This document shows, in pieces, positions 1 to 32,000 of a DNA stretch of 32,000 nt. The first letter of the stretch is position 1, and the number at the start of each line of letters is the position of its first letter. The stretch covers positions 660,001 through 692,000 of the forward strand of contig OZ245922.1 of assembly GCA_965229705.1 (NCBI GenBank), in the 5' to 3' direction. A program made the translations under genes and the position numbers. Below the pieces are notes generated by a model. It searched no databases. It saw only the letters and a program-made list of their open reading frames with translations, and was not told the origin of the DNA. This stretch comes from Candidatus Saccharimonadota bacterium. Its GTDB lineage: Bacteria; Patescibacteriota; Gracilibacteria; BD1-5; UBA6164.

Positions 1-424
1 TAACGACGAGATGATCTGTGATTCGTCCTGGAGTTCCGACAACAATATGAGGTCCGTTCTTGAGCGATCTGACTTCGTCTCGGATATTTTGTCCTCCATA
101 AAGAAGTGTTATTTTGACTCAAGCGTCTGCAAATGATCCTATTTCTTGAGCGACTTGTATTGCGAGCTCTCGAGTGGGAGTGAGAATCATAGCTTGTATC
201 CCTGCTTTGCTCATATCGAGTTTATCGAGTAATGGAAGTCAAAAACTCGCTGTCTTTCCTGTCCCTGTCTGGGCTTGTCCGAGAACATTTTTTTCTCCTG
301 AGAGTAGGAGTGGTATCACTCAAGCTTGTATGGGGCTTGGGTGTTGGTAGCCTTTTTTTTCTATTGCTTGAAGGAGTGTTTCTGAGAGTCAAAGGTCTCG
401 GAAATGTAGAGTCTGTTCTGTCAT
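1..424 (-). CDS. DEAD-box ATP-dependent RNA helicase, N-terminal part (gene continues beyond window start)
   Basis: Minus-strand translation from ATG at 422-424 with TGA=Gly: [66 protein letters not shown]...GTPGRITDHL. Shows Q-motif, Walker A AQTGTGKT and the TPGR motif. Four in-frame TGA codons sit at Gly-typical positions. Confidence 0.9.
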
Positions 425-681
425 AGTAATTTTACAAAAAAATAAAGAGACATATCTCTCTCTCATAGTGAGTGAGTGTCATACACAAAATAATTATTCA
501 AAAATCTCGCCTAAAAGAGATATTTCTGATAATCGGTATTTTGTAGAAGAAATGTCTCTTTGTGGAATATGCTTTGCATATCTATGTCGAGCGGGACTAT
601 ACAAAGAAAAAAATGTAAAGCAAGCTTTTTTGAAAAAAGTATTGTTTTTTCTATTTTTATGTATATAAAATATTTACACTT

Positions 682-790
682 CTTAAGGAACCTCTGAAAA
701 ACGAAAATTTTCTAATCCACTCTGGCTCTAACGAGCCATCTCTCCTTTGCAAAAGGAGAGAAAAAAGGAGTTTTTCAGAACTTCCTTAAT
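682..790 (+). repeat. Copy A of a ~110-nt interspersed palindromic, hairpin-rich repeat
   Basis: CTTAAGGAACCTCTGAAAAAC...TGGCTCTAACGAGCCA-TCTCTCCTTTGCAAAAGGAGAGA...GTTTTTCAGAACTTCCTTAAT. Terminal inverted repeats of about 20 nt enclose two internal hairpins. Related copies at 12144, 25063 and 29287. Confidence 0.8.
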
Positions 791-843
791 GAAGCGAGTT
801 AAACTTTTAATCTCGCTTCATGAGAGGCGAAGAAAGGACTAAA

Positions 844-999
844 ATGGACCTAAATACAGATAATTTTTTCGCAATGCTTCTAATACTCTTGGTTATTAGT
901 TTATCAGATTACTTCCAAGAAAAAATTTGGGTGAAATATATGAAATATGTAATCTTAGGATTGATTCTTGGATTCTCTTTGCCAATTATCTGATTATAG
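844..999 (+). CDS. Small hypothetical membrane protein (51 aa)
   Basis: ATG preceded by AAAGGA. MDLNTDNFFAMLLILLVISLSDYFQEKIWVKYMKYVILGLILGFSLPIIGL, with one TGA read as Gly, TAG stop, terminator hairpin just downstream. No homology recognised. Confidence 0.4.
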
Positions 1000-1011
1000 C
1001 AGGTATACACT

Positions 1012-1040
1012 AAAAAAGGAGCGTTATAACGCTCCTTTTT
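1012..1040. terminator. Bidirectional rho-independent terminator between convergent genes
   Basis: AAAAAA-GGAGCG-TTATAA-CGCTCC-TTTTT. GC-rich 6-bp stem flanked by an A-run and a T-run. Confidence 0.6.
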
Positions 1041-1041
1041 A

Positions 1042-1266
1042 CTATTTTATTATATTCTTCCAGTTCATAATACTCAGCACATACCCTGCAGCAAGTCCCC
1101 AAAAAAACATATACACCCATACATCAAGTGATAAAAGCACTGGGAAAGCCTTTGCAATCCAAAGTGTTGAAAAAACAATCATCAACTTAAATATCATTAT
1201 GTCACGAATTGTCATTCTATGAAGCGTGTCCATAGATTCTTGGATATATCTTTGGTAAAAGTTCAT
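1042..1266 (-). CDS. Hypothetical small membrane protein (start uncertain)
   Basis: Part of ORF 1042..1365. An internal Met (MNFYQRYIQESMDTL...) avoids overlap with the upstream MAPEG gene. Hydrophobic C-terminal half, TAG stop next to the terminator. Confidence 0.35.
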   Translation of the reverse strand: MNFYQRYIQESMDTLHRMTIRDIMIFKLMIVFSTLWIAKAFPVLLSLDVWVYMFFWGLAAGYVLSIMNWKNIIK

Positions 1267-1316
1267 AAAAAAAGAAAAAATATATAAATCGTATCTTAGA
1301 AAAAAATTGCGAAAAA

Positions 1317-1703
1317 CTACAATAGTATTCCAGAAATTGCCAGTAATAACATACTCACCGTACACAAAAGAGAAATCAGAAATGGAATCATACGCTTTTT
1401 AGGATCTTGCTGATACATAACTGCATACAAAATACGCGAAATAATCCATATTCATCAAATAATAGCAGCAGCTATCTCATAACCTCAAAATGTCGCTACC
1501 CACAATAAGGGAAGAAATACCATCACGCTCTCTAGCGTATTTACCTGAATACGATGAGCAATGATAAACTCTGTATTTTTAGTCGTATAGGTCTCATATG
1601 ACTGAACCTTGTGTTTTGAACGCATAGTTCCAACCCTAAAGGCAAGAAGTACCTGTAAAAGAGAGATAACGCAAGTAATCAGACCTGCATATTCATAGTG
1701 CAT
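1317..1703 (-). CDS. MAPEG-family membrane protein
   Basis: MHYEYAGLITCVISLLQVLLAFRVGTMRSKHK...AHRIQVNTLESVMVFLPLLWVATFGGYEIAAAIIGGIWIISRILYAVMYQQDPKKRMIPF... The R-x-H-x-N-x-x-E and R-x-x-Y...Y...P..R pattern resembles MAPEG. Three TGA codons read through; TAG stop at 1317. Confidence 0.6.
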
Positions 1704-1797
1704 AATAAAAAGTTATAAAAATAACTCTTGTATTGTAGTTTCATTATCTATTTACGCAAACTCAATCAACTATTTATGAAAAACTTTTTCAATAGTA

Positions 1798-3747
1798 CTA
1801 ATCTTTTACATACTCCCCTGCAAACTTACTCGTGAGACTCACAAAATCTGAGATATTTTTGAGTTCTCCTCACTCTAAAAGTACTGCCTGCATATAGGCG
1901 TAGTTGATAAGATCTTTGAGTTTTTTGGATTTTATATCAGACTGAAACTCTTTCTTCATCGCTTTTACCAGCTTATTGTTTGGGTTGAGTTCTAGGATAC
2001 GCTTTGTTTTTGGAACATCTTGTCACATCGCTTTCATCATCTTTTCCATTTGTGGATTCATAGATCCGTCTGGAGTTTTGAGAGCTCCAAGTGAATCTCA
2101 AAGATTTGTATTGAGCTCTACTTTTTCGATCTCATCTGCTCAAAGCGTATTTTTTATAAGCTTAAGCATATCTTTATACTGCTTTTGTGCTGACTCTTCT
2201 TTTTTCTTTTCTTCCTCTGTTTTTTCCTTGAGACTCACATCACTCGCGGTAATGGACTTGAGTTTTGCCCCTTTGTACTCATCAAGTACTCCTATCATCC
2301 ATTCATCAATCACATCTGTCAATAAAAGCACATCTACCTTATTTTCTCGAAACTGTGAGATATATGGACTTGCAAGTACTTCTGAGTGCGATTTTCCTGT
2401 GATATAATAAATAGTTTTTTCAGGAGTGTCTTTTTTTTCTGTCTTGTTTTCTCCTTGAGAAGTTTTTGGACTAGAGGCTTCCAAATACTCGTCTAAGCTC
2501 TGTTTTTTCTCTCATAAAAGTGTCTGAAACTCCAGTACCTCTGCAATATCCTGCTTGATATTATGCTCATAGTACACCCCTTCTTTGAGAATATTTCCAT
2601 AATTTTCAAAAAACTTTGAGTATCTCTCTCTATTATTTTCTCGAACTTTTTTCAGCTCTGTGAGGATTTTTTTCTGGAGCGCTGATTTTATTTTTTCAAG
2701 CGTGGTATTTGATTGGAGCATTTCTCGAGAAATATTGAGTGGGAGATCTGATGTCTCCACCACACCAGAAACACATCTGAGCCATACAGGAAGAAGCTCC
2801 TTTGCATGTTCCAAGATAAGCACATTTTGTACATAGAGTTTTGGACCATAATCTCTATTTGGATCTCGCATATCAGCAAACATATTTACTGATTCTGGGA
2901 GAAAAAGTAAAGCGTTATAACTCACTGCTCATTCTACATTTGTATGCACTCTTGCCAGTGGCTCTTGAAAATCCATACTCACACTCTGGTAAAACTCTTT
3001 ATACTGCTCATCACTGATCGATGATTTTGATTTTTTCCAGATTGCTTTTGTTTCATTGACCCTTTCGTATTTGAGCTCTTTTGGTTCTTTTTTCTGTTCT
3101 TCTTCTGATCGCGTATCATTTTCGAGCATCATAATCGGAACAGCAACATAGTTTGAGTATTTTTTTATGAGTTCTCTGACTTTCCAATCTGTCACAAGTT
3201 CCTGATTTCCTTCACTAAAATACAGCTTTACCGTTGTTCATCTTGACTGTTTCTGAGTCTCTATAAGCTCATATCCTGTTTTCCCATCACTGGTCCATAA
3301 ATGCGCTTTGGTATCCAAAGCACTTCGAGTCGTTACCTCTACCTTTTGCGCGACCATAAAAGCAGAATAAAATCCCACTCAAAACTGCCCAATAAGATTA
3401 TGGTCTCCTCACTGTTTTGCTTTTTCGAGCTTTTCTATAAATTCTTTTGTTCCTGACTTTGCAATCGTCCCAAGATGAGTATGGATTTCATCTTGTGTCA
3501 TTCAGATACCATTATCACTGATAGAGAGTGTTTTTTTATCACTATCAATATCTATTGTAATCTCAAAGTTGGTATCATCTCCGAGAAAGCTGGTATCTGT
3601 CAGAGACTTGAGTCGCGCTTTATCGATAGCATCAGAAGCGTTTGAGATGAGTTCTCTCAAAAATATTTCTTTATTAGAATAAATAGAATGTGTGAGCAGC
3701 TCAAGAATTCTTCCCGTTTCTGCTGCAAAATTATGTTTTTTTGTCAT
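1798..3747 (-). CDS. htpG: Molecular chaperone HtpG (Hsp90), 649 aa
   Basis: N-terminus MTKKHNFAAETGRILELLTHSIYSNKEIFLRELISNASDAIDKARL...SISDNGIGMT (the G of GMT is TGA at 3502-3504). C-terminus ...AYMQAVLLEGGELKNISDFVSLTSKFAGEYVKD. The four listed minus ORF fragments are all in one frame, joined only by TGA codons. Confidence 0.95.
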
Positions 3748-3757
3748 AAAAAATATA

Positions 3758-3962: not shown

Positions 3963-4379
3963 ATGCAATATAAAATCCCGGTACAAATAGAAAATGAGGA
4001 TCCTATATTTTTAGGATTGAGCCTGAGGCAACTTACTATTATTATGGTAGGTTTTTGAATTGCTTATGGTATTTTTCAGAGTCTTATGCCGAGTGTTTGA
4101 TGAGAAATAGCTCTCATTCCAAGTGGTTTTATCGCGATACTTACCGTGCTTATTGCGGTGTTTAAAATCCATGAAATGACTTTTGTCCCTTTTATCCTCT
4201 CCCTGATACGACTCAATATTTTTCCCAAAGAACGCAAATGGGAGATGAATACTGATAGTTCTTGGTCGCTGGATATCGGATTTTTAACCAGTGAAACCGA
4301 AAAAAAACAACAAAGCATAGATATAGAAAGAAAAATAGATACAATCGAAGAACTCCAAGAAAAACTCAAAAAGATTTAG
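3963..4379 (+). CDS. PrgI-family (VirB3-like) small membrane protein of type IV secretion-like systems
   Basis: MQYKIPVQIENEDPIFLGLSLRQLTIIMVGFGIAYGIFQSL...FILSLIRLNIFPKERKWEMN... The N-terminal motif and two TM segments are as in PrgI-family proteins. Three TGA codons read as Gly; TAG stop. Confidence 0.6.
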
Positions 4380-4412
4380 TCATCTTCTTACTTCTTCTCT
4401 ACAAAGAAACTT

Positions 4413-5120
4413 ATGCCAGAGAAAAAAAAACCTAGTAAATCTCCCGACAGTAGTACCCAAAGACATCTTCCCTTTTCTCAACTGCGAGAAAATATCATGA
4501 TCATGAAAGACTCTTCAGCAAGAGTTGTGATGAAATGTAGTACCATTAACTTTTTACTCAAAAGTAACGAAGAACAAGATGCTATTATTGTAAGTTTTCA
4601 GCGCTTTCTTAACTCTCTGGATTTCCCTGTGCAGATAATAGTAAGATCCAGTAAACTAGATATAGATGGATATCTAGAAAAACTCAAAGAAAAAGCTGTC
4701 AGCCAAAAAAATGAACTCTTACAAAACCAGACATATGAATATATTGATTACCTCAAGAAACTTGTTGAGGTAGCACAAATTATGAAGAAAGAGTTTTATA
4801 TCGTTGTACCTCACGACCTCGAAGAAGATGCGAGCGTGAAATCTCAAGGAATATTTGGCATGTTTAAAAACTTTTGGCGAGCTATTAACAACGGAGATGA
4901 TATTGTAAAAATTCGTAGTCAAATACGCAGTTTTCAAGAAACGAAAAAGGCTCTTATGAACCGCAGTAGTACCGTAAAAACCAGTCTCGAATCTATTGGT
5001 ATTCGTGCAAGCGAACTCAATAAATCAGAACTCGTTGCTCTCCTTTCTGACTACTATAACCCAAGCCTTTGAAACTTTCAGGCTATGAAATCTCCGATTT
5101 CTGATTATAATCTTCTCTAA
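4413..5120 (+). CDS. Protein resembling only the N-terminal domain of VirB4/PrgJ-type T4SS ATPases (235 aa, no ATPase domain)
   Basis: ...RENIMIMKDSSARVVMKCSTINFLLKSNEEQDAIIVSFQRFLNSLDFPVQIIVRSSKLDIDGYLEKL... resembles the N-terminal region of Gram-positive VirB4-like proteins. No Walker motifs. One TGA read through; TAA at 5118. Confidence 0.45.
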
Positions 5121-5959: not shown

Positions 5960-6382
5960 ATGAAACTCTTTTTTTCTATCATACTGAACGCCTCTATTTT
6001 GTACGCTATTACCTATCTTCTCTGACCAAATAGCGACAAAGCACTTGAAGCGTGAGTTGCCCTGTGATGTCAAAACTGTGAATACTTCTCTATTCAGGCG
6101 CTCAAGACCTATATTTTAGGAGGAGTCATACTATGAATCATTAACTCCACTCTCAGGCCTATACTGAGAATACTCTCTTTGCCCCTCTACTTTATATTTC
6201 TTTGATTGGTAAGTTTTTTTATCAATGCTATCATTCTCTATGTTTTTGGATATATCATCAATGATATACTCATGATTCCTGGTGTTTGATACGAAATTAT
6301 ATGAAATACAAACTTTATAATTGCAGTTGCAATTTTCACCGTCTTGAATACAGTCTATTCACTTTTGCATTTTAAAAAATAA
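5960..6382 (+). CDS. Phage holin family IV / DUF360-type membrane protein
   Basis: ...LGGVILGIINSTLRPILRILSLPLYFIFLGLVSFFINAIILYVFGYII... matches the hallmark LG..N..vRP.L..L.LP....TLGLF..v.Na core of this family. Several TGA=Gly codons; TAA stop. Confidence 0.7.
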
Positions 6383-12266: not shown

Positions 12267-12713
12267 TTAGTAAGATTTTTTCATAACTTTCTGCGCCTCC
12301 CTTTCAAGACTTCGTTCTTTGAGGATTTGGCGTTTTTGGTGTTTTTTCTTTCCTCTTGCAAGTCATACTTCTACCTTCACAAGACTTCCCTTAAAATACA
12401 TCTGAAGGGCTAACAGGGTATATCATCCTTCCTTAAGTTTCGAGCCATAATATATAATCTTTTTTCGTGGAAGAAATATTTTTCGAGGTCGAGAAGTATC
12501 TACTATCTTATTGTTCGGTAGGGCTTTCCATGCTCATATATGAGCTTGCAGAAGAAATAATTCATTATTTTTGAGACTGATATATGAACCTTTGAGATTC
12601 ACATTTTTTTCTCTGAGAGACTTGAGTTCATGCCCTAAAAGTTCTATTCATGCCTCAAGCGTCTCAAGCACTTCATAGTCAAAATAGGCTTTTTTGTTTC
12701 TTGTGATTTCCAT
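12267..12713 (-). CDS. smpB: SsrA-binding protein SmpB
   Basis: MEITRNKKAYFDYEVLETLEAGIELLGHELKSLREKNVNLKGSYISL...RPRKIFLPRKKII...YTLLALQMYFKGSLVKVEVGLARGKKKHQKRQ... AGGAGG lies upstream of the ATG. TGA=Gly in EAGIEL and VGLARGKK. TAA stop. Confidence 0.9.
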
Positions 12714-13928: not shown

Positions 13929-14013
13929 AAAAAAATCGCTAAAAAACTGCGTGGAATTGTATAGAAGAAAGGCAGAAAATCAAAAGAGAAAGTAGGATTT
14001 TTCTGTTGGATTT

Positions 14014-18754: not shown

Positions 18755-18839
18755 AGTATGAGTATATTATGAGAAACTGAATTTGCAAAAGAGCCTGAAC
18801 AGACTATGCTGAGTTTCATCTATTTTTTCAAAAATATAC

Positions 18840-19673
18840 ATGATTCTCGATGGAAAAAAAATCGCAGATGAGATACACGAAGAACTCTCTAAAAATATTT
18901 CCCAGCTCTCAGTAAAACCAAAACTTGCGGCTTTTTTGGTAGGAGACAATCCTGCAAGTCTCAAATATATCTGACAAAAACGAAGATTTGCAGAAAAGGT
19001 ATGAATGAAGTTTGATTTATATCAATATGATACAAATATCAGTGAAAAAGACCTTTCTCTCGAAATAGAGAAATGTAATACTGATCCTCATATTTCCGGA
19101 TACATTGTTCAACTGCCTCTTCCTGAACATATCGATAGCTCTCGTATTTTCTCAAAAATAGATCCTGCAAAAGATGTTGATGGCTTTCATCCGATAAATC
19201 AGTGAAAAGTACTTATTGGTGATACAAGTGGGTTCACTCCCTGTACTCCCGCAGGGATCATGAAGATATTTTCTTATTATAATGTTTCTCTGCGTGGAAA
19301 GTGTATAGTCATACTTGGACAAAGTACGCTTGTATGAAAACCTCTTTCTCTTCTTTGTATGAACGCTGGAGCAACGGTCATAAGCTGCAATTCCAAAACG
19401 ACTGATATTTCACATTATACCAAAAATGCTGATATTATCGTCTGTTCTACGGGTGTAGCTCATTTGCTTACACCAGATATGCTATGAGATACAACATTGA
19501 TTATTGATGTTGGTTTTTCTATTGTAGATGGGAATATCTTTGGTGACGCTGATACAAAAAATATTCTCAAACATGGTCATGATATCACTCCTGTTCCTGG
19601 CTGAGTTGGTCCTATGACAGTTGCAATGCTCTTACTCAATACCTATAAAGCGTATGAATCCTCTTTGTCATAA
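18840..19673 (+). CDS. folD: Bifunctional methylenetetrahydrofolate dehydrogenase / methenyl-THF cyclohydrolase FolD
   Basis: [16 protein letters not shown]...[28 protein letters not shown]...[15 protein letters not shown]...[14 protein letters not shown]...TPCTPAGIM...[17 protein letters not shown]... TGA at 19602-19604 is the second G of PGGVGPMT. Confidence 0.95.
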
Positions 19674-19933: not shown

Positions 19934-20010
19934 GCGGGTGTAGCTCAATTGGCTAGAGCATCTGCCTTCCAAGCAGAGGGTTGTGGGTTCGAGTCCCATC
20001 ACCCGCTCCA
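19934..20010 (+). tRNA. tRNA-Gly (anticodon UCC)
   Basis: GCGGGTG-TA-GCTC-AATTGGCTA-GAGC-A-TCTGC-CTTCCAA-GCAGA-GGGTT-GTGGG-TTCGAGT-CCCAT-CACCCGC-T-CCA. Full cloverleaf with encoded CCA. Confidence 0.9.
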
Positions 20011-20076
20011 TAAAGCAAAGAGAAGCCTAGAATGGAGAATTGTTTTGAAGATTCTCTATGCTAGGTTTTATTTTTT

Positions 20077-20282
20077 CGGGGACTGGCGCAATACGGCTAT
20101 GCCGCACGCTTTGGGAGCGTGGGGTTCGGGAGTTCTCCTCTCGCTACGCGAGACTCTCACAAAAATAAAATTACATCTTCGGGGACTGGCGCAATACGGC
20201 TATGCCGCACGCTTTGGGAGCGTGGGGTTCGGGAGTTCTCCTCTCGCTACGCGAGACTCTCACAAAAATAAAATTACATCTT
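20077..20282 (+). repeat. Two perfect 103-bp tandem repeats, each starting with a copy of the 5' half of tRNA-Pro
   Basis: 20077-20179 and 20180-20282 are identical: CGGGGACTGGCGCAATACGGCTATGCCGCACGCTTTGGGAGCGTGGGGTTCGGGAGTTCTCCTCTCGCTACGCGAGACTCTCACAAAAATAAAATTACATCTT. The acceptor 5' strand and anticodon arm match the real tRNA-Pro that follows. The GTCCCCG 3' acceptor strand is absent. Confidence 0.9.
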
Positions 20283-20359
20283 CGGGGACTGGCGCAATTG
20301 GCTAGCGCACACGCTTTGGGAGCGTGGGGTTGTGAGTTCGAGTCTCGCGTCCCCGACCA
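20283..20359 (+). tRNA. tRNA-Pro (anticodon UGG)
   Basis: CGGGGAC-TG-GCGC-AATTGGCTA-GCGC-A-CACGC-TTTGGGA-GCGTG-GGGTT-GTGAG-TTCGAGT-CTCGC-GTCCCCG-A-CCA. G37 and the C1-G72 pair are typical of tRNA-Pro. Confidence 0.9.
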
Positions 20360-20621: not shown

Positions 20622-22373
20622 ATGAGAAATGCAAGAAATGAATGTTTTGCTGGTGTAGAGATTGAGTATCTCTGAGGTATAGAATCCATAGAAAAACAAG
20701 AAACCATCACCTGATCATGTACCCTATTCTCAGCTCGTGACCTCAAAGGGAATACTATCAAAATCATCATAGATGCTGGGATGCACCAATGATGAAAAAA
20801 AGAAAAAGAAAAAAATGCTGATGTTGATGAGCGAATACTTACTGCTGATCATCTCATTGTTACCCATGCACACATTGACCATATTGGGAAAATACCCTTT
20901 CTCGTAAAAAAAGGATTTCGATGAAAAATACATATGTCTCCAACAACCAAGCAAATTGCTATAGAATCTCTCAAAGACAGTGCAAGAGTTATGAAAAGAG
21001 AATATGAGGAAACTCTCTGATATAATAAAAAAGTAGGTCCTTTACTCAAAGCTATGGTCAAATTGAAAAAGATAGAAGAAACACTACAAAAAAATGGTAT
21101 CAATAAAGCAGACCGAAACAAGTTGGAGCAACAGAAACTACAGATTGGTAAAAAATATACCGCTCAAGAGTTAAAAATACATAGAGACAAATACCCACAC
21201 ATACAAGAAAATTCTGATATTGCATGAGTGCTTCGTCCACCTACTCCTCCTCTTTATTCTCTCGAAGATGTTCTTCAGATTGTCCCAATGATAGAGTCTC
21301 TTGATATAGGACAAAAAAAATCACTGTCTTTTGAGTCAGGGACTTGAGTATCTGATATTTCTGAAACTCCCACTATAGATGGTTTATCTGTTTGCTTTCA
21401 CAATGCTGGGCATATAGCAGGATCTGTGCAGGCTGAAATCTCCATACGCATATCACGAATTATTAACGGAGCAAAGCAGCTTCATTCACCACAAGATACC
21501 CAAGAAGAAAAAATATATCTCTTCTCCTGAGATCTCTGAAGAATGGATACATGAAATGTATCATGACCCCCAAGTATTACTCAAAGTCATGTTGACTACG
21601 CTCAAGTTGAGTCAACCTACGCTTGAAAGAATCATCCAGATAGATGGTCCTCTCACAGCAGGCTTATAGAAATAATCCAAAATGCTCCTTGAAAAATAAT
21701 TATCCCTTGCTTCGCTGTTCAGCGCAGTCAAGAGATACTGCTGTTACTTCTCAAACATGCTGGAGAACTCGGTATATCTCCATGAAATATTATTCTTGAT
21801 AGTCCTCTCGCAAGCCTCATGACAGATGTATATATCAACAATATCGGTGAACCCTACTCCCTGCTTGATCCTGCAATACAAAGAGAAAGACTCGGGAAAG
21901 TATATGTAAAAAGGCTCACCGAAAAAAATGCTTATAAAAAACTCTATAGCGATAGAGCGAGAAATACCAGACAAATCATCATATCTTCTGGTTGAATGTG
22001 TCAATGATGAGCCATCATATCTCACCTTAAACAAAACCTCTCAAACCCCAACTCCACTATTGTATTTATAGGATATACTCCCGAAAATACTCTCTGAAAA
22101 CAAATAAAGAATGCTACACAAGAAGTCTCTATCGAGTGAAACACATATCCCATAAACTGTCATGTTCATGATATAGCATGATTTTCTGGGCATATATGAC
22201 ATGATGAGATTGTACAATACTGTAGTGAGATACACTTTCGTGCTGGAGCAATTCTTGCCCTGACTCATGGTGGAGAATCAAGATCAAAGCTCAGCTCTGA
22301 GATACAATCCCCCAAAAAATGAGGGAAAGTCACTACTCCCCAAGTATGAGATACTGTAAAACTAACATTCTAA
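20622..22373 (+). CDS. Beta-CASP family metallo-beta-lactamase-fold ribonuclease/nuclease (583 aa)
   Basis: ...ETITGSCTLFSA...[11 protein letters not shown]...[29 protein letters not shown]...[11 protein letters not shown]...[15 protein letters not shown]...ISSGGMCQGGAIISHL...HDIAGFSGHIGHDEI...LALTHGGES... carries the HxHxDH motif and beta-CASP motifs A, B and C. About 25 TGA codons, many at motif glycines. TAA stop. Confidence 0.85.
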
Positions 22374-22376
22374 AAT

Positions 22377-23390
22377 ATGAACATCCAAAAATGAATCAGC
22401 CACTGTGATACCATAGGAGATATTTTTAAAAACCCTCTCCTAGTAAAGCTTATTAACAGGTGGCATAAACAGCTGTATAGTAACCAAGGGATACAGCGTA
22501 AAAAAAATAAGCGTATTCGCCCAGAGTATTATGAGTTTCTCCGAAGCATATTTCTAGATAGATCAGATATGCATCTTTTTTTGGACTATATCCGCGAACT
22601 GATCATCACAGAGGATAGTTTATACCAAAGTATTGAAAAGAGTTATAATATAGAAGACCGCATTGTGACACTGCTTGCTTTCGATGAGATACATACACAA
22701 CTCTCAAACTACAATAGGTTCACTCTGCAATGAATATTTCAGACTCGTATATATGACATTATTAACGACGCTAAAAATCGTAGTGCTCATGAAGAAGACC
22801 CAGAAGAATGAGTCTATCCAGAAATATCTGTATATGACGCTTTAGAAGGTATGCTCGAGAGATGAATTCCTATCAGTCAAGATGGAGAAATCATAGGTTA
22901 TATAGCTGATACAAATGACCACTACCTTGTGAGTGTTCAATGAGTTTGATCCTTGCGAGAGGCTGATAGAGTGTGAAACTATGTTGATGAAGATGATATA
23001 CTACAAATATCATGACTTGCTATACCAGCTACAAGAGGTGATATGGTTAAGAGAATTCGTATGATAGAAAATATATTGCAGCATATATGAAGTTGAGATG
23101 ATGAAGAATCTGTTTTATGAGACGATGAAGAAGCACTTTATAATGCTCTTGAGAGTGATTTTGATAGCCAGAGAGATACGCACCTTGATGAGACCATGAT
23201 TCAACAACACTTTTATGAATATGTTGATCAATATAAAACAGAGCTATGAGAAAGACTCAAGAAGATGCCCTGGGATACGCAAAAAGAGTTTCAATGACTC
23301 AAGCTCGTATGAACTTCTGGAGATCCTCATGAATCTTGAAAAAATGCAAACACTCCTACCCGAAAAAAAAATCTTCATATCGTGAAATAA
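22377..23390 (+). CDS. Hypothetical acidic protein (337 aa as written; last ~30 codons doubtful)
   Basis: ATG starts 4 nt after the nuclease stop. MNIQKGISHCDTIGDIFKNPLLVKLINRWHKQLY...DDEESVLGDDEEALYNALESDFDSQRD...KKMPWDTQKEFQ. After about 23295 this frame has three TGA codons in 16 codons and looks non-coding. TAA at 23388. Confidence 0.5.
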
Positions 23391-25047
23391 TATCCTTAAT
23401 CAAAAAAACATGCACTCCTCAAATATAACTCGATCCCAAGTGACTGCTAGTATTCCCCATGAAATTGATTCGTATACGGGGAAAGTCAGAATAGACCCCT
23501 CAGCTATTACTCACATAGTCTCTCAAACACGCTGAGAAACTCTTCATCTCTCTGACGTGAGTCCAGAAAAGCAGGGTCTTCTCCAACATTTTCAAAAAAA
23601 TATTATATGACAAGAGCAGGCATGTGAAGAAGTTGCTGATCGTATCGATATATGACTACATCGTATGCTACAACCAGGCTGACCTCTTGCGATTATTCCT
23701 TTATTTTGACCTACAGGAGTATGAAAAACGCAATTTGCTCGTTGTACTGCGGAGTTCTTTTTTGGTGATTCTTGAGACTTCACAAAAATAGCTGGAGAAG
23801 AACATCAGCAATCACATACAGATAGAAATATATTTTGAGCTCCAAAATCGTATATAGGATATGGAGATTCAACCCCTCTTTCATCGAAAAATTTATTTCG
23901 ATATTATGACAAAAAGAAAAACACTCCTCTTTTACAAAATAGACCGAACTTTTCTATTCTTTTGCTTGATGAAATAGAAAAGTTTCATCCAAGTATTATT
24001 CAATCTTTTCTCTGAATACTTGATACATGAAAAGTCGAACTGACCAATAATGATTCTGTAGATCTGACGAATACCATTATTTTTATTACTTCAAACGCTG
24101 GAGAAGCAGAGGCATCTAATAGAAAACCCATATGATTCTACGCTCATGAAGATCATGATGATGAGGATATTCGTGACAGAGCAATATCTCAAACATTTTC
24201 TCCAGAATTTCGATCTCGAATGGGTTCTCCTATACGACTCAAAAATCTTTCACCAAATGACTGTATTGGTATTATTCATAAAAAAATTCAAGATACTAAC
24301 AAGGTTTTACAAGACTATTATATCTCGTGGAATGTTCATATATGAATTTCTGATTCTGCTGTGGATTTTTTAGTAAAACATTGATTTAACAAAAAACAAT
24401 GAGCAAGACCAATAGAGCATGTGTATAAAAAGTTTGTTAGTAGGAAAATTGATCGAGTGCTAGGTGAGTTGAAGGACTCTCCCGTACTGTACAGAAGAAA
24501 CCCAACCATACTTTTCTTTGATTATCATGAACAAAGTGATGATATGACTGTACAATTATTTTCTCCTGAAATACAAAAAGGGTCCCATTTTATACAGGCT
24601 ACACCCTATCAATATACTCCTACGACTATTGATTTAGTAAACAGAATTCTTTCTCAGTCAGAGAAAGTAACATCATATATCACTGAGCTAACAAAAGACG
24701 GATTTGATAAAAATGCCATTGTATTGTTTTCTACCCTAGATCATCAGAAGATTCTCGAAACTATCAGTATTTTTGAGTTATGGGGTAAATGATCTATCAA
24801 TGTGTATGGAGAACATCCTGATGCTTTTGAAAATTTTCAGCTGAGAGATATAGGGAGGATAATTCTCAATATAGCGCGGCAAATTTTTCAAAATGATAAC
24901 TACTCCAAGCATATATTTATATTGCGAGTCATTGCTCGGGGTATTCTTGTCATCCAAGAACTCATCTGAAGAGAAACACTAAATGAAATACAAAAAAATA
25001 TTATAGTACAAATGTCGGTATCTTCTGCCTTAAAAATATGGAAGTAG
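23329..25047 (+). CDS. Single-domain Clp/Hsp100-like AAA+ ATPase (ClpA/B D2-type) with ~220-aa C-terminal extension; start uncertain
   Basis: ...IDPSAITHIVSQTRGETLH...NIIGQEQACEEVADRI...LFGPTGVGKTQFA (Walker A; both glycines are TGA at 23707-9 and 23722-4)...IFGAPKSYIGYGD...ILLLDEIEKFHPSIIQSFLGILDTGKV...IIFITSNAG...FSPEFRSRMG... Candidate starts at 23329, 23344 and 23410. Frame is +1 relative to the upstream gene. TAG at 25045. Confidence 0.75.
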
Positions 25048-25330: not shown

Positions 25331-25407
25331 GGGCGTATAGCTCAGTTGGTTAGAGCGCACGACTGATAATCGTGAGGTCGGAAGTTCAAATCTTCCTATG
25401 CCCACCA
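25331..25407 (+). tRNA. tRNA-Ile (anticodon GAU)
   Basis: GGGCGTA-TA-GCTC-AGTTGGTTA-GAGC-G-CACGA-CTGATAA-TCGTG-AGGTC-GGAAG-TTCAAAT-CTTCC-TATGCCC-A-CCA. Confidence 0.92.
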
Positions 25408-25480: not shown

Positions 25481-26767
25481 TTATACCAAACAGATTTTCT
25501 CATCTCCTGACTGAAGATGTTTTATTTTGTAACATGATTTCTGACATTCTTCCTCTCCAAAAATAACTACATGAGAAAAATGATGCTTATCTGCATACTT
25601 CATAGCTTTTGCGAGTTTTTTCTTTGAAAGTCAAAGTTCTATATTTTTTCACTGCTGGCGTAAACATGATGCAAGACTTTGCACATCGGAAAATAATACT
25701 CCTTCCAAAAGAGGAAAGTAATACTTTTCTTCTTGAGTATCTACAAGTTTTTTCAAAAGATTATGCCCCTCTAAAAAGAGCTTCATTGTCTCATCTCCAG
25801 GAGCAAATCCTACTGCTGGAATATCCTCTTTTACTCAAAAAATACTTGCTAAACCATTATATCTCCCTCCTCAAAAAAGAGCTCGTGGATTATCTGAGTT
25901 TTGATCAAACATTTCAAAGATAATTCCATCATAGTAGTCAAAACCTCGAATCAGATCTCCCGAAAATTGTATCTCAGAGGCATATCAAAGATCTACTAAA
26001 AAAGTACTTATTTCTGAAAAATCTTGAAAACTCTGCGTTGTAACAATATCAGGAAAAGACTCTGCCAGATCAGAAATACTTTGAGAGCTCATAAATTTCT
26101 CAATAGAAGAAGATATATCGCCTAATCAAAGTTCTCAGAGTCACTGAGTAAAAGCTTCTCACGTCATTTTTTCATATTTATCCAGCAGTCTCATCAATTT
26201 TTTTGAGAGTGTTTCATCTGAGATTTTGAGAATATTTTGAAAAAAACTTTCTATGAGTCATCGATGATTGAGTTTGAGCATATAACTGCCACTTGGGGCA
26301 TCAAAGGCTCTCATGAGTTCCAGAGCGAGTGTCAGTATTTCTCTATCGGCATTCACTCATGATTCTCCAAATATATCTGCGTTGAGTTGCCAAAACTCTC
26401 TATTTCTTCATTTCTGTGGTTTTTCGTTTCGATAAAAATTCGCAATACTAAACCATTTCAGAGGCTTATCACATTCTTTCCACTTACGGCTAACCATACG
26501 AGTAACTGTTGGGGTCATTTCTGGTCGAATTGCGAGTCCATCAAGATGTCATTCACGGTTTGTAATCTGTGTGAGCTCTGATCAACCTACATCTTCTCAT
26601 GATTTTGCTTTCCATATATCGATGGGCTCTACGAGTGGTCCAAGATATTCTTGAAAACCATAGCGTAGGCATACCTGTCTCCAGGTATCAAAGATATATT
26701 TTCTGAGTTTGTATTCTTCGGGAAACCAGTCTGAGGTTCATTTTGGTGGAGTATTTGGGAGTTGCAT
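25481..26767 (-). CDS. hisS: Histidyl-tRNA synthetase
   Basis: MQLPNTPPKGTSDWFPEEYKLRKYIFDTWRQVCLRYGFQEYLGPLVEP...AIRPEMTPTVTRM...FYRNEKPQKGRNREFWQLN...LIRGFDYYDGIIFE...ALFGGGRYNGLASIFG...IPAVGFAPG... The G of PKGTSDW is TGA at 26738-40. TAA stop at 25481. Confidence 0.93.
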
Positions 26768-26845: not shown

Positions 26846-27610
26846 TTACATTTTTGAAAATTCACTACTCTTGAGTTTTATCCTAATACCAAAGGCATTA
26901 TTTCCATATACTTCTTCTGGAAAATGCATTTTTCGACGATAGCTATGAAAGAGCTCTTTCTCTTTATAAGTACAATACGGAGAAACTTCTATATGTTTAT
27001 GCAAAACTCCATACTTCAAAAGTTGGTGCTCTGCAGTTGCTCGAAGATGAAAAAAATAATTTTTATTTCTCTGTTCTAAAAAAGAAGTGTACTCCTCAGG
27101 AATCCGAGAAATAAAATCTTCTCCCACCTCGTAATTTTGTACTCAAATACAGGGACCAACAAATACATATAGGTCTTGAGGTTCAGAAGAAAAGCTCTCA
27201 TGCATTTTCTGAAATGTCTTTGAGATAATACCAGAAAAAAGTCATCTCCATCCTGCATGAATGGCTCATACACATGTATTTTTCGCATCGTATATAAGAA
27301 GTGGGATACAATCTGAGGCTAAGACGCTCATAAAGACTCAAGGAATATTTGTAATAGCTGCATCGCCGTAGTGCTCTTGACTATAATTTTCTGAAGTAAT
27401 AAGATGAGTAGTATTTCCATGTTTTTGACTCAGAAACACAAGACTATCTTGTGATATTCATAGTTTCTGAGCCAAATATATTTTATTTTTTTCAGCAGCA
27501 TATGTATCCTCTGATTTATGAATTGAAGAATGGAAAAAATGAGGTTTCGTAGTTATGAAACTCTCCACCTCTGGAAACTTAGAAAAGATGTGAGGATATA
27601 ATATTTTCAC
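26846..27610 (-). CDS. pgeF: Peptidoglycan editing factor PgeF (YfiH / DUF152 laccase-domain protein)
   Basis: ...SDCIPLLIYDAKNTCVGAIHAGWRGLFSGII...VFVGPCIGVQNYEVGEDF...SPYCTYKEKELFHSYRRK... The last G of HAGWRG is TGA. The GTG start shares one base with the comM TAG. TAA stop. Confidence 0.85.
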
Positions 27611-29145
27611 TATGATTCTTCCTTTTTACGATAACTCAATGCCTCTAAAATATGTTCTGAGGAAAGTATATCACTTCCGTCAAGATCTGCAATAGTTCGA
27701 GAAAGCTTGAGGATACGATAATAGCTCCGAGCAGAAAGATCAAGATTCTCTACTGCTTGCTGCAAAAGATCTTGAGCCTCTTCTTCAAGAATGCAGTATT
27801 CTTTTACCTGCTGAGAACTCATCTCAGCATTTGCTGAAATATTGAGCTGTAAAAAACGGTTTTGCTGAATATCCCGAGCCTTTTGAACTCGAAGCTGTAC
27901 TTCCTGTGAACTCTCTGGAGTATTGTCTCTTCACTTTTTAAAATCTTCAAGAGGAACTTTGGGAACATCAATATACATATCCACGCGATCAATCAAAGGT
28001 CCTGAAAGACGAGCGCGATAATTTGCTATCTGATTTAGACTACAAATACACTGCTTATCTGTATCTGTGAGATACCCACACGGACAAGGATTCATCGCTC
28101 AAAGAAGAGAAAACTTTGCCGGATAATTATATGTTGCATTTACCCTCGTTACAGTAATTTCGCCATCTTCCAGTGGCTGACGGAGAACCTCAAGTACCGT
28201 TTTTTGAAACTCCAAAATTTCATCAAGAAACAAGACTCCCTTATGAGCAAGTGATATCTCTCACGGTTTTGCATGACTCCCTCCACCAATAATACTCACA
28301 CTACTTGCAGTATGATGGATACATCGAAACGGTCTTTCGACGACTAAAGGTATATCATTTGATAGTAATCATGATATAGAATATATCTTTGAGATTTCTA
28401 TAGACTCTTCCAATGTAAGATCCGGGAGAATACCCGAAAACGATTTTGCTAGCATCGTTTTTCCACTCCCTGGAGGTCCTTCCATAAGAATATTATGGGC
28501 TCATGCTGCTGCTATCTCCAGAGCTCTTTTTGCCTGAGATTGTCAGACAATATGACAAAAATCATATTTTTGTGAAACATGCTCCTGTCTGAGGGATGAG
28601 AGGTCCAAGACTGGTTCTGGTGTATAGGCAAGTTCCTGATTGAGAATAGCGATAAGTTCTTTGAGGTTTTGTATTTTGATCACCTCAATTCCTGGAATGA
28701 TAGACGCTTCTTTGGTATTAGCTGCAGGAATAAAAATACGAGAAAATCATTTTTCTTTTGCTCCTATTGTTGCTGGAAGTACTGAAGGGATATGCCGTAA
28801 ACTCCCATCAAGCGACAATTCTCCTAAAAATATTGAGTCCTGTACCAGACTCTCATCTCGAATATATCACTGATCCAGCAATATCCCTACCGCAATTCAC
28901 AAATCAAAACTTGGTCAGGTCTTTTTGATATTTGCTGGAGCAAGATTTACGGTGATCCGCGTTGTTGGAAGTTTTGCACCACTCGACTTAAGAGCTGAAC
29001 GCAGACGCTCTTTACTCTCTTGTACTCACTGGTCAGGAAGTCATACGATGGTAAAAGCAGGAAGCCCTTGGTTTATATCTACTTCGATATCAACAAGGGT
29101 TGTATCGAGTCCATTGACACTAATAGCGCGAGTTATAGAAATCAT
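27610..29145 (-). CDS. comM: Mg-chelatase-like AAA+ protein ComM/YifB
   Basis: [38 protein letters not shown]...[29 protein letters not shown]...[11 protein letters not shown]...[12 protein letters not shown]...[19 protein letters not shown]... The G of AAAGAH is TGA at 28501-3. TAG stop. Confidence 0.93.
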
Positions 29146-29396: not shown

Positions 29397-29399
29397 TTT

Positions 29400-29795
29400 T
29401 TAGTTCCCCACTATCTTATCAAGTGTCTGCATCTTCAAGAGAGAGTTTATTCCTCGCTGCAGATGACCTAACGCGTCAGTAGTGTAACAATTATCTTTTT
29501 TTTCACAGTATTCATCGCGTGTACACTCAGTAATACCAATCTCTTCTCCAACTGCCAGAAATATATCATAAAGAGAAATCTGTGATGGTGGAACTGCGAG
29601 CATCACTCAACCACCTCGACCTTGCTTTGAAAGAATAATCCCTGCCTTATGAAGGTCAGGAATAATACGCCGAAGACACGCCTCGCTCATTCACTGATCT
29701 ATCACAATATCTTTTATTTGCACAAGCTCATCTCGATCTGCAATATAACAAAGTGCCTTTAGAGCATCATCTCATGTTTGTGAAAGTTTGATCAT
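29400..29795 (-). CDS. Rrf2-family transcriptional regulator, IscR-like
   Basis: MIKLSQTGDDALKALCYIADRDELVQIKDIVIDQGMSEACLRRIIPDLHKAGIILSKQGRGGG... (wHTH), then ECTRDEYCEKKDNC, a C-x5-C-x5-C spacing like the IscR Fe-S ligands. TAA stop. Confidence 0.85.
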
Positions 29796-29830
29796 GGGAA
29801 GTTTACTGTTTAGAGATTATAAACTCATAG

Positions 29831-30232
29831 CTAGAGTGATAACACGCTATCAAATACATCTTTTTTTCCATCTTGTAGATAGTGATGAAGAGCGTTACGA
29901 GTAGTAAGAAGCCCCAGAATACTTGCTTTTTTGCGTCTTTCGCTCACGGGCATTTGTATCAACTCCTCGATATAACTGTAGCCATAGTGAAATACTTCTT
30001 CTATCTGCATACCAATAATACTTTCTCCAAAGATGCTCGCACAAGCTGTCGTAATAATCGCTGTATCTCACTGGAAAGACCAGTTTTGTATTGTATTATT
30101 TTTGATTTTTATATACACTTTGAGGTCATCTCCACAAGTACGATTTTCTTCCCAAAAGGATACATCGTAGTGAGGAAGTATTCCTTTATTTGGTGGTGTT
30201 CTCGAATAAAATGTAATAATTTCGTTATGCAA
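29831..30232 (-). CDS. NifU N-terminal domain / SufU-like Fe-S scaffold protein (divergent)
   Basis: (TTG start) HNEIITFYSRTPPNKGILPHYDVSFWEENRTCGDDLKVYIKIKNNTIQNWSFQGDTAIITTACASIFGESIIGM...RRKKASILGLLTTRNALHHYL... The NxxCGD motif is present. TAG stop. Start is tentative because there is no in-frame ATG. Confidence 0.7.
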
Positions 30233-30240
30233 GATAGGGA

Positions 30241-30277
30241 AAAGTTTAAAGGGAAAAGCTAAAAGTAAGAGAAAAGT
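30241..30277. repeat. Left arm of a 37-bp inverted repeat bracketing the four-helix-bundle gene
   Basis: AAAGTTTAAAGGGAAAAGCTAAAAGTAAGAGAAAAGT. Its reverse complement matches 30734-30770 (29-nt perfect core; 2 mismatches in the 8-nt extension). Confidence 0.85.
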
Positions 30278-30315
30278 TACGAGTTACAGGTTGGAAGTTA
30301 GAAAAAAATAACTAT

Positions 30316-30666
30316 TTATGCACGCCTCTTTAAAGACTTAATCAGTCAAGCAAGCATTTTAGATATCTCAATACATACTTGAAACAGTTTCTGAAACATT
30401 GTTTGATCTATATATCAAAAATCTAAAGCGATGTATAACATTGAGCGAACTTCTCAACAAGATCATTTAGCAATAAATAGAAATTGTCGTAGCTCTTTAT
30501 CAGTTTGTCGCTCATATCATTCAGCAATATTATTGGAAATAGATACTGCTGCTCTTTCTATTTGGTTTTTAAATCAAAAATCAGAGTTACTTTGAAAAAT
30601 CTTATATATTACAACTGATAAATCTTTTGCCTTTTTCCAACAGTCCAAATCTTCAAATTGTTTCAT
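30316..30666 (-). CDS. Four-helix-bundle protein (23S rRNA intervening-sequence protein family)
   Basis: MKQFEDLDCWKKAKDLSVVIYKIFQSNSDFGFKNQIERAAVSISNNIAEGYERQTDKELRQFLFIAKGSCGEVRSMLYIALDFGYI... shows hallmark motifs Q-x-x-RAA-x-SI-x-x-NIAEG and F-x-x-IA-x-GS-x-x-E. TAA stop. Confidence 0.85.
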
Positions 30667-30733
30667 ATAATCTCTATCCTTAAATGTTAAACTCTCTCAA
30701 CTCTTGCTTTCTGATTTTTTCCTCTTACTCCCC

Positions 30734-30770
30734 ACTTCTCACTTACTTTTAGCTTTTCCCTTTAAACTTT
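30734..30770. repeat. Right arm of the 37-bp inverted repeat; followed by a second CCCTTTAAACTTT copy
   Basis: ACTTCTCACTTACTTTTAGCTTTTCCCTTTAAACTTT. The CCCTTTAAACTTT core recurs at about 30779-30791. Confidence 0.85.
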
Positions 30771-30811
30771 CTACTTTCCCCTTTAAACTTTCCCCTTTCC
30801 ACTTTTCACTC

Positions 30812-32000
30812 TTAGCTTCCAAGCTCAATAATAGCCTGATTCAAAATATCAAAAAATTTCTCTATATCTTCCCGAGTATTATATACTTGTAAACTCATTC
30901 GGCACGTGTGTGTCTGCCCAACATATTCCATGAATGGCTCCGCACAATGCTGACCTGCACGCACGCAGATACTATGATTTGCAAGATAGTCAGAGATATC
31001 AAAACTATGAATTCCCTCTACAACAAAGGTAAAAACTCCGACTCTATTAACAGGAGAAGAAGAACCAATGAGTCTGAGTTGTGGTATTTGAGAAAATTTT
31101 TCTCAAGCATATTGTACTAAATCTGCCTCTATTATTTCAAGTGTTGTGTATCATCAAATACTCTCAATATACTCAAAAGCTTTGAGTATACTCACTGCTC
31201 CTGTAAGGTTTGGTGTTCCTGGTTCAAACTTGTCTGGCAGCTTGCTACTATGCGTAAAATGATGTTGCTTCACTTCTCCTATTGCTCCTCCTCATGAAAA
31301 TATAGGTTTGAGTTCCGTAAGAAGTTCTTCTTTTGCCCATAAAACTCCTATTCCAGAATCTGCAAAAACTTTATGTCCCGTAAAAAAGAGGGCGTCACAA
31401 CCAAGTTTTTCTACATCTACCTGAAAGTGTGGAACACTCTGAGAAGCATCTACAATCAGGAGTGGTTTTTGCTGTCTTCCGTATCGAGCCAAGAGCAATG
31501 AGTTGATATGAGCAATATCAAATATTTGCCCCGTGGTATTACTCACATGTGTCAGTGAAACAACTTTTACCCTACCACTAAGCTTATCTCGAAAGTCATT
31601 ATAGTCTACATCAAAATTTTCCGTCACTCATACAAACTCTACATTGATACCATAGTCTTCTTTGAGTATGAGCCATGGAACAACATTGGCGTGATGTTCA
31701 ACAATCGTGACAAGTACGGTATCTCAGGTTTTGAGTTTATGTGATCGCTGTAAGCTTTGAGCAAGAATATTGAGAGCGTATGTGGAGTTTGCTGTGTAAA
31801 CTATCTCTCTCCAGGACTCTGCTCAGATATGTTTTGCAACCATTTTTTTTGAGTCTTCATAGAGCTTTTCTGATTGTTCTGAGATATCATAACTTCCTCT
31901 ATGAATATTTGCGTAGCTTGATCTGAGATACTCACTCATACCTTCTATAACATGTGATGGTTTTTGAGCTGTCGCAGTACTATCGAGATATACAAGATCT
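30812..32000 (-). CDS. sufS: Cysteine desulfurase SufS/NifS-type (class V aminotransferase); N-terminus beyond window end
   Basis: ...DLVYLDSTATAQKPSHVI...HHANVVPW...SLTHVSNTTGQIFD...FFTGHKVFADSGIGVLWAK...FSGGGAIGEV...FEPGTPNLTGAV...ICVRAGQHCAEPFM...CRMSLQVYNTREDIEKF... TAA at 30812. Confidence 0.92.

Follow-up and report, generated by a model that had tools for sequence, protein, structure and literature searches.

What does TGA mean in the 32-kb stretch of DNA analyzed here (hereafter, the window), where almost every gene appears broken when the standard code is applied? Under table 11 the window holds only three open reading frames (ORFs) of at least 150 aa, and its stop-to-stop ORFs of at least 100 aa add up to 3,905 aa. 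Freeing TGA raised this total to 20,601 aa, compared with 9,981 aa and 8,008 aa when TAA or TAG, respectively, was freed. With TGA as a sense codon, 29 credible genes cover ~89% of the window (GC content, 35.7%), and 28 of them share 193 in-frame TGA codons, as expected from the original prediction that genes here are split by TGA under the standard code; five more short ORFs are apparently spurious. The pieces of each gene had also been said to stay in one frame, and indeed Pfam domains were recovered as single full-length matches running across the TGAs without frame changes. All interruptions of genes were TGA; neither frameshifts nor internal TAA or TAG codons occurred. TGA is a sense codon in the window. 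Its density peaks in the gene for a beta-CASP RNase, and a single credible gene, encoding a hypothetical protein, lacks it. The protein-coding and tRNA genes are as follows, with in-frame TGA counts and stop codons.

2-466, minus strand: DEAD-box helicase, N-terminal part, running off the left edge; 4 TGA (Pfam DEAD, 1.9e-30)
1317-1703, minus: MAPEG-family membrane protein; 3 TGA, TAG
1798-3747, minus: HtpG/Hsp90; 10 TGA, TAG (Pfam HSP90, 1.9e-94)
3963-4379, plus: PrgI-like protein; 3 TGA, TAG
4413-5120, plus: short TraC/VirB4-N-like protein; 1 TGA, TAA
5490-5954, plus: DUF5673-like small membrane protein; 2 TGA, TAG
5960-6382, plus: Phage_holin_4_2 family small membrane protein; 7 TGA, TAA
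6620-8791, plus: SBP_bac_5-like extracellular protein; 14 TGA, TAA
8795-9712, plus: polytopic membrane protein; 4 TGA, TAA
9885-10844, minus: xylose-isomerase-like TIM-barrel protein (weak Pfam match); 5 TGA, TAA
10846-12177, minus: seryl-tRNA synthetase (Pfam); 4 TGA, TAG
12267-12713, minus: SmpB; 4 TGA, TAA (Pfam SmpB, 1e-41, full length)
12753-14084, minus: M23 peptidase (Pfam); 11 TGA, TAG
14014-14979, minus: FemAB-family transferase (Pfam); 4 TGA, TAA
15001-15297, minus: hypothetical protein, no Pfam match; 2 TGA, TAG
15492-16505, minus: RuvB; 5 TGA, TAG (Pfam RuvB_N, AAA_lid_4 and RuvB_C, full length)
16650-17099, plus: SSB; 1 TGA, TAA
17175-17732, minus: hypothetical protein; 0 TGA, TAG
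17852-18754, minus: hypothetical protein; 6 TGA, TAG
18711-19673, plus: FolD, with its start probably near 18840; 8 TGA in the ORF, TAA (Pfam THF_DHG_CYH and THF_DHG_CYH_C)
19934-20010, plus: tRNA-Gly(UCC)
20283-20359, plus: tRNA-Pro(UGG), third unit of a 103-bp tandem array (20075-20339)
20622-22373, plus: beta-CASP metallo-beta-lactamase RNase (Pfam); 24 TGA, TAA
23098-25047, plus: single-AAA+ ClpB-D2-like ATPase; 18 TGA, TAG
25331-25407, plus: tRNA-Ile(GAU)
25481-26767, minus: histidyl-tRNA synthetase; 16 TGA, TAA
26846-27610, minus: PgeF/YfiH (Cu-oxidase_4); 5 TGA, TAA
27610-29145, minus: ComM/YifB Mg-chelatase-like AAA+ protein; 12 TGA, TAG
29400-29795, minus: Rrf2-family regulator; 3 TGA, TAA
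29831-30232, minus: NifU/SufU-like scaffold; 1 TGA, TAG
30316-30852, minus: 23S rRNA-intervening-sequence protein family, true start probably internal; up to 9 TGA in the ORF, TAA
30812-31999, minus: SufS-type cysteine desulfurase, N-terminus past the right edge; 7 TGA, TAA (Pfam Aminotran_5, 1.6e-107)

We aligned window proteins to 12 E. coli K-12 orthologues, which placed 83 TGA positions opposite an E. coli residue. Glycine occupied 43 of these positions against a background of 7.6% (binomial P = 2.7e-26), and neither tryptophan nor cysteine occurred at any (0/83 each), bearing out the proposal that UGA is read as glycine. The glycine score in these alignments was 65-75% for GGN codons and 7% or less for every other amino acid; the share at TGA (52%) is somewhat lower than that at GGN, which is compatible with TGA being used more often at less conserved positions. 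Five of the ten TGAs of HtpG and all three of the Rrf2-family regulator fell on glycines, the latter of E. coli IscR, and RuvB columns 168 and 290, both TGA in the window, are glycine in 61/62 and 62/62 standard-code bacteria. PDB homologues of the histidyl-tRNA synthetase, ComM and the beta-CASP RNase likewise had glycine opposite many TGAs and no tryptophan, with glycine at YLFS[X]D, SSG[X]MCQ[XX] and NTL[X]K of the RNase (X, TGA).

The original prediction had named invariant glycines encoded by TGA, and at every one of its coordinates an in-frame TGA stands within the motif in question. Re-translation located both Walker A glycines of the Clp-like ATPase (LF[X]PTGV[X]KT; 23707-23709 and 23722-23724) and those of RuvB (FTLV[X]ATTR; 16002-16004) and FolD (PVPG[X]VGPMT; 19602-19604); the others lie in HtpG (DNGI[X]MT; 3502-3504), ComM (AAA[X]AH; 28501-28503), SSB (YIE[X]RLQTR; 16881-16883), the histidyl-tRNA synthetase (PK[X]TSDW; 26738-26740), PgeF (HAGWR[X]; 27242-27244) and the DEAD-box helicase (SF[X]LP; 239-241). 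Counting TGA as glycine raises the glycine content of the window genes from 4.2% to 6.3%, and TGA then supplies 193 of 568 glycine codons (34%), a frequency about that of GGA. TGA encodes glycine in the window, and the remaining codons keep their standard meaning throughout, including CGA and CGG as arginine.

Genes terminate at TAA or TAG. The 28 credible ends that could be closed comprised 15 TAA and 13 TAG, so the exclusive use of these two stops, as originally described, held, but the accompanying figure of roughly 36 closed ends did not. The TGAs are not where homologues end: in 10 of the 12 E. coli orthologue pairs all TGAs lay upstream and the alignment stopped no more than 14 residues short of either C-terminus, and all gene ends that could be checked by homology were TAA or TAG. 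For example, the alignment with E. coli HtpG spanned residues 9-615 of 624, and that with E. coli SerS reached residue 425 of 430. For ORFs without homologues an end at TGA is formally possible; the ClpB-like ORF, for instance, has two TGAs in its C-terminal 185 aa, where no homologue aligns.

The nearest relatives of the window are Gracilibacteria. Its nearest RuvB matches were from Candidatus Gracilibacteria metagenome-assembled genomes (MAGs), at 77, 75 and 69% identity, and gene order is partly common to the window and Gracilibacteria MAG contigs: the pair of PrgI-like and TraC/VirB4-N-like genes is kept in one Gracilibacteria locus (L014), and the M23 peptidase and FemAB-family transferase genes are syntenic in two loci (L013 and L017). 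Among the 18 nearest RuvB-containing loci (L012-L029), 16 RuvB genes had 1-20 in-frame TGAs. TGA and GGN swap at the same columns between the window and these relatives, with window TGAs opposite TGA (52) or GGN (86) of the relatives in 138 of 212 cases and, in the reverse comparison, 214 of 329 TGAs of the relatives opposite GGN or TGA of the window; the relatives are thus Gracilibacteria that interchange TGA with GGN. RuvB matches, gene order and TGA use together point to a position within the Gracilibacteria/Absconditabacteria clade (GTDB class JAEDAM01), the group whose signature had been recognized in the original prediction. Because arginine is still the meaning of both CGA and CGG, the assignment narrows further, to Gracilibacteria/BD1-5 and away from Absconditabacteria. 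The species is missing from the GTDB species representatives, where the best RuvB match was 77% identical.

UGA would be read by a dedicated tRNA-Gly with a UCA anticodon encoded elsewhere in the genome, and release factor 2 (RF2), which otherwise terminates at UGA, would have been lost. Neither the 32-kb window nor any of the 18 loci with the nearest RuvB genes, about 16 of which have in-frame TGA, encodes a tRNA with this anticodon, and Pfam searches found no release-factor gene in the window. The tRNA-Gly(UCC) of the window reads GGA and GGG and is not the UGA decoder. A pattern scan of metagenomes returned 120 loci, 69 of which had a conserved 79-nt tRNA(UCA) bearing the identity elements for glycine (G1:C72, C2:G71, G3:C70 and U73). 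The contigs carrying it showed the same TGA-glycine ORF signature as the window, with glycine at 25 of 31 testable TGA positions. This tRNA adjoins another tRNA-Gly in ~13% of those contigs, and it is not found beside the tRNA-Gly(UCC) of the window. ARAGORN calls any tRNA(UCA) SeC. Table 25, tRNA-Gly(UCA) and the loss of RF2 are all known in the clade (PMC8629427; gTranslate preprint 10.64898/2026.05.24.727570).

We propose that the window is almost certainly a chromosomal segment of a member of Gracilibacteria/BD1-5 (CPR/Patescibacteria) that uses NCBI table 25, with UGA as glycine and only UAA and UAG as stops. Were the TGAs true nonsense mutations, in a genome undergoing decay or a region rich in pseudogenes, the interruption of almost every gene under table 11 would be explained, but the interruptions are exclusively TGA, fall on conserved glycines, leave domains at full length in a single frame and align with TGA or GGN codons of relatives. 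We regard gene decay as extremely improbable and, in line with the original prediction, attribute the fragmentation under table 11 to a decoding artefact, because UGA is an ordinary glycine codon. Table 4, in which UGA is tryptophan, is used by Mycoplasmatales and several insect endosymbionts, and in-frame TGA in low-GC DNA would fit it at first sight. Tryptophan, however, is absent from all aligned TGA positions yet matched at 37% of TGG codons in the E. coli alignments (P = 2e-17 for none in 83), the implied tryptophan content of 2.9% would be abnormal, and window TGAs pair with TGA or GGN in relatives rather than TGG, making this reading highly unlikely. UGA is also the selenocysteine codon, and the SeC label given to tRNA(UCA) might suggest selenocysteine or other local recoding, for instance site-specific programmed readthrough; the probability of this is vanishingly small given TGAs spread over 28 of 29 genes rather than a few sites, the absence of cysteine opposite them, and a tRNA(UCA) family of normal size with glycine identity elements instead of a long-arm tRNA-Sec.

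Some large phages recode stop codons, and the PrgI/TraC-like pair and the holin-family protein might seem to mark the window as part of a phage or other mobile element rather than a bacterial chromosome. An origin of this kind is extremely unlikely in view of the housekeeping content (SerRS, HisRS, RuvB, SmpB, SSB, FolD, HtpG, SufS/SufU and three tRNAs) and the gene order common to Gracilibacteria MAG contigs. UGA could, alternatively, mostly encode glycine while serving as a context-dependent terminator of a minority of genes. ORFs without homologues provide no check on their ends, and the last TGAs of the ClpB-like (24790 and 24967) and TraC-like (5070) ORFs have no aligned homologue, but all homology-testable ends are TAA or TAG, genes with such ends are tightly and regularly spaced, and a dual meaning is not described for the clade in PMC8629427 or preprint 10.64898/2026.05.24.727570; we consider it very unlikely. 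There is an equally slight chance that our reading errs in that UGA terminates a few orphan genes in a context-dependent manner or is decoded without the canonical 79-nt tRNA-Gly(UCA).

The use of UGA for glycine in Gracilibacteria is real, relevant for annotation and already known, and the value of these findings is practical rather than conceptual. Annotation with table 11 breaks 28 of 29 genes, such that a healthy CPR genome would seem rich in pseudogenes or would pass for "dark matter" of low coding density, and table 4 would replace 193 glycines by tryptophan, among them the Walker A residues and other catalytic glycines. Read with table 25, the window is densely packed with ordinary housekeeping genes. 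It adds one more lineage to the known code-25 clade and confirms that CGA and CGG are kept as arginine in that lineage.

NCBI table 25 is the Candidate Division SR1 and Gracilibacteria code (Campbell et al. 2013 and Rinke et al. 2013, cited in PMC8629427). The window resembles it in having UGA as glycine and UAA and UAG as sole stops in a low-GC CPR genome, and relatives that are Gracilibacteria MAGs with in-frame TGA; metagenome contigs with the TGA-glycine signature also encode a tRNA(UCA) that bears glycine identity elements. No difference was detected, tRNA-Gly(UCA) and RF2 loss lying outside what 32 kb shows. Table 4, as in Mycoplasma/Spiroplasma and endosymbionts, shares with the window UGA as a sense codon, a reduced AT-rich genome and the expected loss of RF2, but differs in the amino acid, which is glycine here. 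In the variant of Absconditabacteria (SR1), UGA is also glycine, and CGA and CGG are additionally reassigned to tryptophan (Shulgina and Eddy 2021, PMC8629427). We rejected this reassignment for the window, where, unlike in that variant, CGA is common (81 codons) and aligned mostly to arginine (24/43, 56%, against E. coli and 74/98 against relatives), and CGG, in a small sample of 12 codons, aligned to arginine or lysine and never to tryptophan.

Under the bacterial standard code (table 11), the window (G+C content, 35.7%) holds just three open reading frames (ORFs) of ≥150 aa in 32 kb. Stop-to-stop ORFs of ≥100 aa total 3,905 aa in that code. Each stop codon was then freed in turn: the total rose to 20,601 aa with TGA as sense, compared to 9,981 aa for TAA and 8,008 aa for TAG, which shows that the gain is specific to TGA. 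With TGA as sense, a greedy set of non-overlapping ORFs covered 89% of the window, and removal of five ORFs that were short, overlapping or tRNA-overlapping left a credible set of 29 genes. In-frame TGA occurs in 28 of these, for a total of 193 codons; ORFs 17175–17732 and 4413–5072 are intact under table 11. Whole-domain Pfam matches ran across the TGAs, each as one unbroken stretch, indicating that the ORF pieces share one frame.

Pfam families matched across in-frame TGA codons
HSP90
RuvB_N/AAA_lid_4/RuvB_C
SmpB, 1–143 of 143
SSB, 1–104 of 104
THF_DHG_CYH and THF_DHG_CYH_C
Mg_chelatase/ChlI/Mg_chelatase_C
Aminotran_5, 1–371 of 371
tRNA-synt_His
Seryl_tRNA_N with tRNA-synt_2b
Cu-oxidase_4
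Rrf2
Beta-Casp
DEAD
MAPEG
NifU_N

The original prediction, that genes are split by in-frame TGA with the pieces in one frame throughout, is thus borne out, and every position it listed is an in-frame TGA at the named motif (three were re-read directly).

The residue specified by TGA was determined by pairwise alignment of window proteins, with TGA masked as X, to 12 E. coli K-12 orthologues.

Residues of E. coli orthologues aligned to window codons
TGA: 83 aligned positions; Gly 43 (52%), Trp 0, Cys 0
GGA, GGC, GGG and GGT: 12–96 aligned positions each; Gly 65–75%
TGG: 27 aligned positions; Trp 37%

Against a glycine background of 7.6%, and glycine alignment of ≤7% for each remaining amino acid class, the binomial probability of at least 43 glycines in 83 TGA positions is 2.7 × 10−26. 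No further departure from the standard code was found among the 62 codons present in the aligned regions. Among 62 RuvB homologues from other phyla, glycine occupied TGA column 168 in 61 and column 290 in all 62, and ranked first or second among the residues at columns 285 and 299. Glycine was found in at least one of four PDB structures at about 9 of 16 TGA positions in HisRS and in a Legionella structure at 6 of 12 in ComM, while SSG[X]MCQ[XX] of the beta-CASP RNase lay opposite SASGMLEGG; tryptophan appeared at no TGA position in the PDB alignments of these three proteins. Counting TGA raises the glycine content of window proteins from 4.2% to 6.3%, and TGA supplies 193 of 568 glycine codons, similar to GGA (198).

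These data decide among several readings of the interrupted frames. If UGA encoded tryptophan (table 4), the absence of tryptophan from all 83 positions would have a probability of 2 × 10−17 and tryptophan content would reach an abnormal 2.9%, so we reject this code. Selenocysteine is rejected on similar grounds, with 193 sites across 28 genes and cysteine at none of the 83. Gene decay, in which the TGAs would be nonsense mutations in pseudogenes, is also rejected: TGA is the only interruption and is in frame every time, the interruptions favour conserved glycines, and relatives have GGN or TGA opposite. Nor do we accept a phage or mobile-element origin of the window, given that housekeeping genes make up its content and that it is syntenic with Candidatus Gracilibacteria MAGs. 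The assignment of UGA to glycine, as originally proposed, agrees with the E. coli alignments, the RuvB columns and the PDB comparisons alike.

Gene ends could be closed in 28 cases, 15 at TAA and 13 at TAG; the predicted use of these two stops therefore holds, and the predicted count of about 36 does not. In 10 of the 12 orthologue pairs, the alignment ended no more than 14 residues short of the E. coli C-terminus and of the window ORF's TAA or TAG alike, with all TGAs upstream of that end. The two exceptions were the ClpB-like protein and SSB, which has a disordered tail that could not be aligned to its E. coli orthologue. That UGA keeps a terminator role at a few orphan genes is unsupported; formally, orphan ORFs could still end at TGA. 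We conclude that the window shows UGA translated as glycine and termination by UAA or UAG.

When one genome from each GTDB species was scanned with the RuvB protein, the best matches were Candidatus Gracilibacteria MAGs (77, 75 and 69% identity), followed by further Gracilibacteria and Patescibacteria MAGs; Peregrinibacteria and unrelated phyla made up the matches below ~55% identity. Judged by RuvB, none of these GTDB species representatives is near-identical, indicating that the window's species is absent from those scanned. Of the 18 RuvB genes closest to that of the window, 16 contain in-frame TGAs (1–20 each), and the Peregrinibacteria gene has none. The window and several relative loci share the gene order SSB, RuvB, FemAB, M23, SmpB and SerRS, and a second block runs from PrgI through a membrane protein. 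Window TGAs lay opposite TGA (52) or GGN (86) of relatives at 138 of 212 aligned codons, and relatives' TGAs lay opposite GGN (162) or TGA (52) of the window at 214 of 329. TGA and GGN interchange here as synonymous codons do.

The window's only tRNAs are tRNA-Gly(UCC), tRNA-Pro(UGG) and tRNA-Ile(GAU), and Rfam at gathering threshold added nothing to these three. ARAGORN found no tRNA(UCA) in the 18 nearest RuvB-containing loci. The 260 bp upstream of the window's tRNA-Gly(UCC) contain no such gene, so in this genome the predicted decoder must be elsewhere. Metagenomes were scanned with a pattern comprising G1 C2 G3, U8, A14, U33-UCA-A37, G53-TTCRA-C61, C70 G71 C72 and U73. The scan returned 120 loci (L092–L211), and 69 of them contained a single, tight 79-nt tRNA(UCA) family (GCGGGGGTAACATAAAAGAGTGAGTGTACTAAGGCTTCAACCCTTGGGTGTGCGAGTTCAAACCTCGTCCCCCGCTCCA), for example:

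L099, 8932–9010
L114, 3968–4046
L168, 225–303

This very tightly conserved 79-nt tRNA has glycine identity elements, its D region is unusually long, and ARAGORN wrongly labels it tRNA-SeC. On the 69 contigs, table-11 ORFs of ≥150 aa are nearly absent and ORF density is normal with TGA as sense; of the 31 TGA positions there that could be aligned with E. coli proteins, 25 were glycine, and all 69 carry the TGA-as-glycine signature. A second tRNA-Gly follows within 200 nt in nine of the 69 loci (GCC in eight, UCC in one), and the tRNA-Gly beside tRNA(UCA) in L114 shares 94% identity with tRNA-Gly(UCC) of the window.

Within the window, tRNA-Pro(UGG) overlaps a tandem array (20075–20339) in which a 103-bp unit is present in 2.6 copies. 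Copies 1 and 2, identical to each other, match the 5′ two-thirds of this tRNA (acceptor 5′ strand, altered D arm, identical anticodon arm), but diverge beyond it and have no 3′ acceptor strand; they look like tRNA-derived pseudo-copies, and the real tRNA-Pro (20283–20359) is copy 3 alone.

Several individual genes and gaps merit description. The ClpB-like protein (23098–25047, +) has a single AAA+ module whose resemblance to ClpB is confined to the second nucleotide-binding domain (residues 87–464 align to ClpB 506–844); its N-terminus is unrelated, its 185-aa C-terminal extension has no detectable homologue, and weak homologues lie close to RuvB in relative loci L024 and L028. The beta-CASP metallo-beta-lactamase RNase (20622–22373, +) has the window's highest TGA density (24 of 583 codons); in the PDB it best matches chains of 8yhd, 8yhe and 8z4j, labelled 'a protein | Cas14', with Thermus RNase TTHA0252 ranking below them. 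At 3963–5120 (+), a PrgI-like small membrane protein precedes a 235-aa protein that weakly matches the N-terminal part of TraC/VirB4 and lacks the ATPase domain; the pair and four downstream genes are kept in Gracilibacteria locus L014, so it is not a decayed fragment. The ORF at 30316–30852 (−) belongs to the 23S rRNA-intervening-sequence protein family; its upstream part runs across a short 14/21-bp tandem repeat (30745–30805) encoding a Lys- and Ser-rich repeat (KGESLKGKVESLKGK...), and the true start is probably an internal Met just ahead of the Pfam domain. Neither of the comparatively long intervals 466–1317 and 22373–23098 contains a convincing gene, whichever code is applied, or an Rfam match at the gathering threshold, and short ORFs 1042–1365 and 22453–22707 lack Pfam support.

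The window's code is NCBI table 25, known since 2013 from SR1/Absconditabacteria and Gracilibacteria (PMC8629427) and confirmed again by Codetta (PMC8629427) and gTranslate (10.64898/2026.05.24.727570); every feature of it testable within 32 kb is present. Given what is established for this clade (PMC8629427; gTranslate preprint), a tRNA-Gly(UCA) would be expected to read UGA and RF2 to be absent. Both the observation and the interpretation in the original prediction were correct, and the lineage is narrowed to the Gracilibacteria/BD1-5 side; UGA as glycine matters for annotation here and will not surprise specialists. Because Shulgina and Eddy reported that Absconditabacteria, the sister clade, additionally moved CGA and CGG to tryptophan, as some Gracilibacteria did for CGG (PMC8629427), we checked both codons. 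CGA (81 codons) fell on arginine at 24 of the 43 positions aligned to E. coli and at 74 of the 98 aligned to relatives, and CGG (12 codons) lay opposite arginine or lysine and never tryptophan, which rejects an Absconditabacteria-type reassignment. The window can be placed on the Gracilibacteria/BD1-5 side, and its CGA and CGG are unchanged: unlike the Absconditabacteria code, in which both encode tryptophan, it keeps both standard, and its code is plain table 25.
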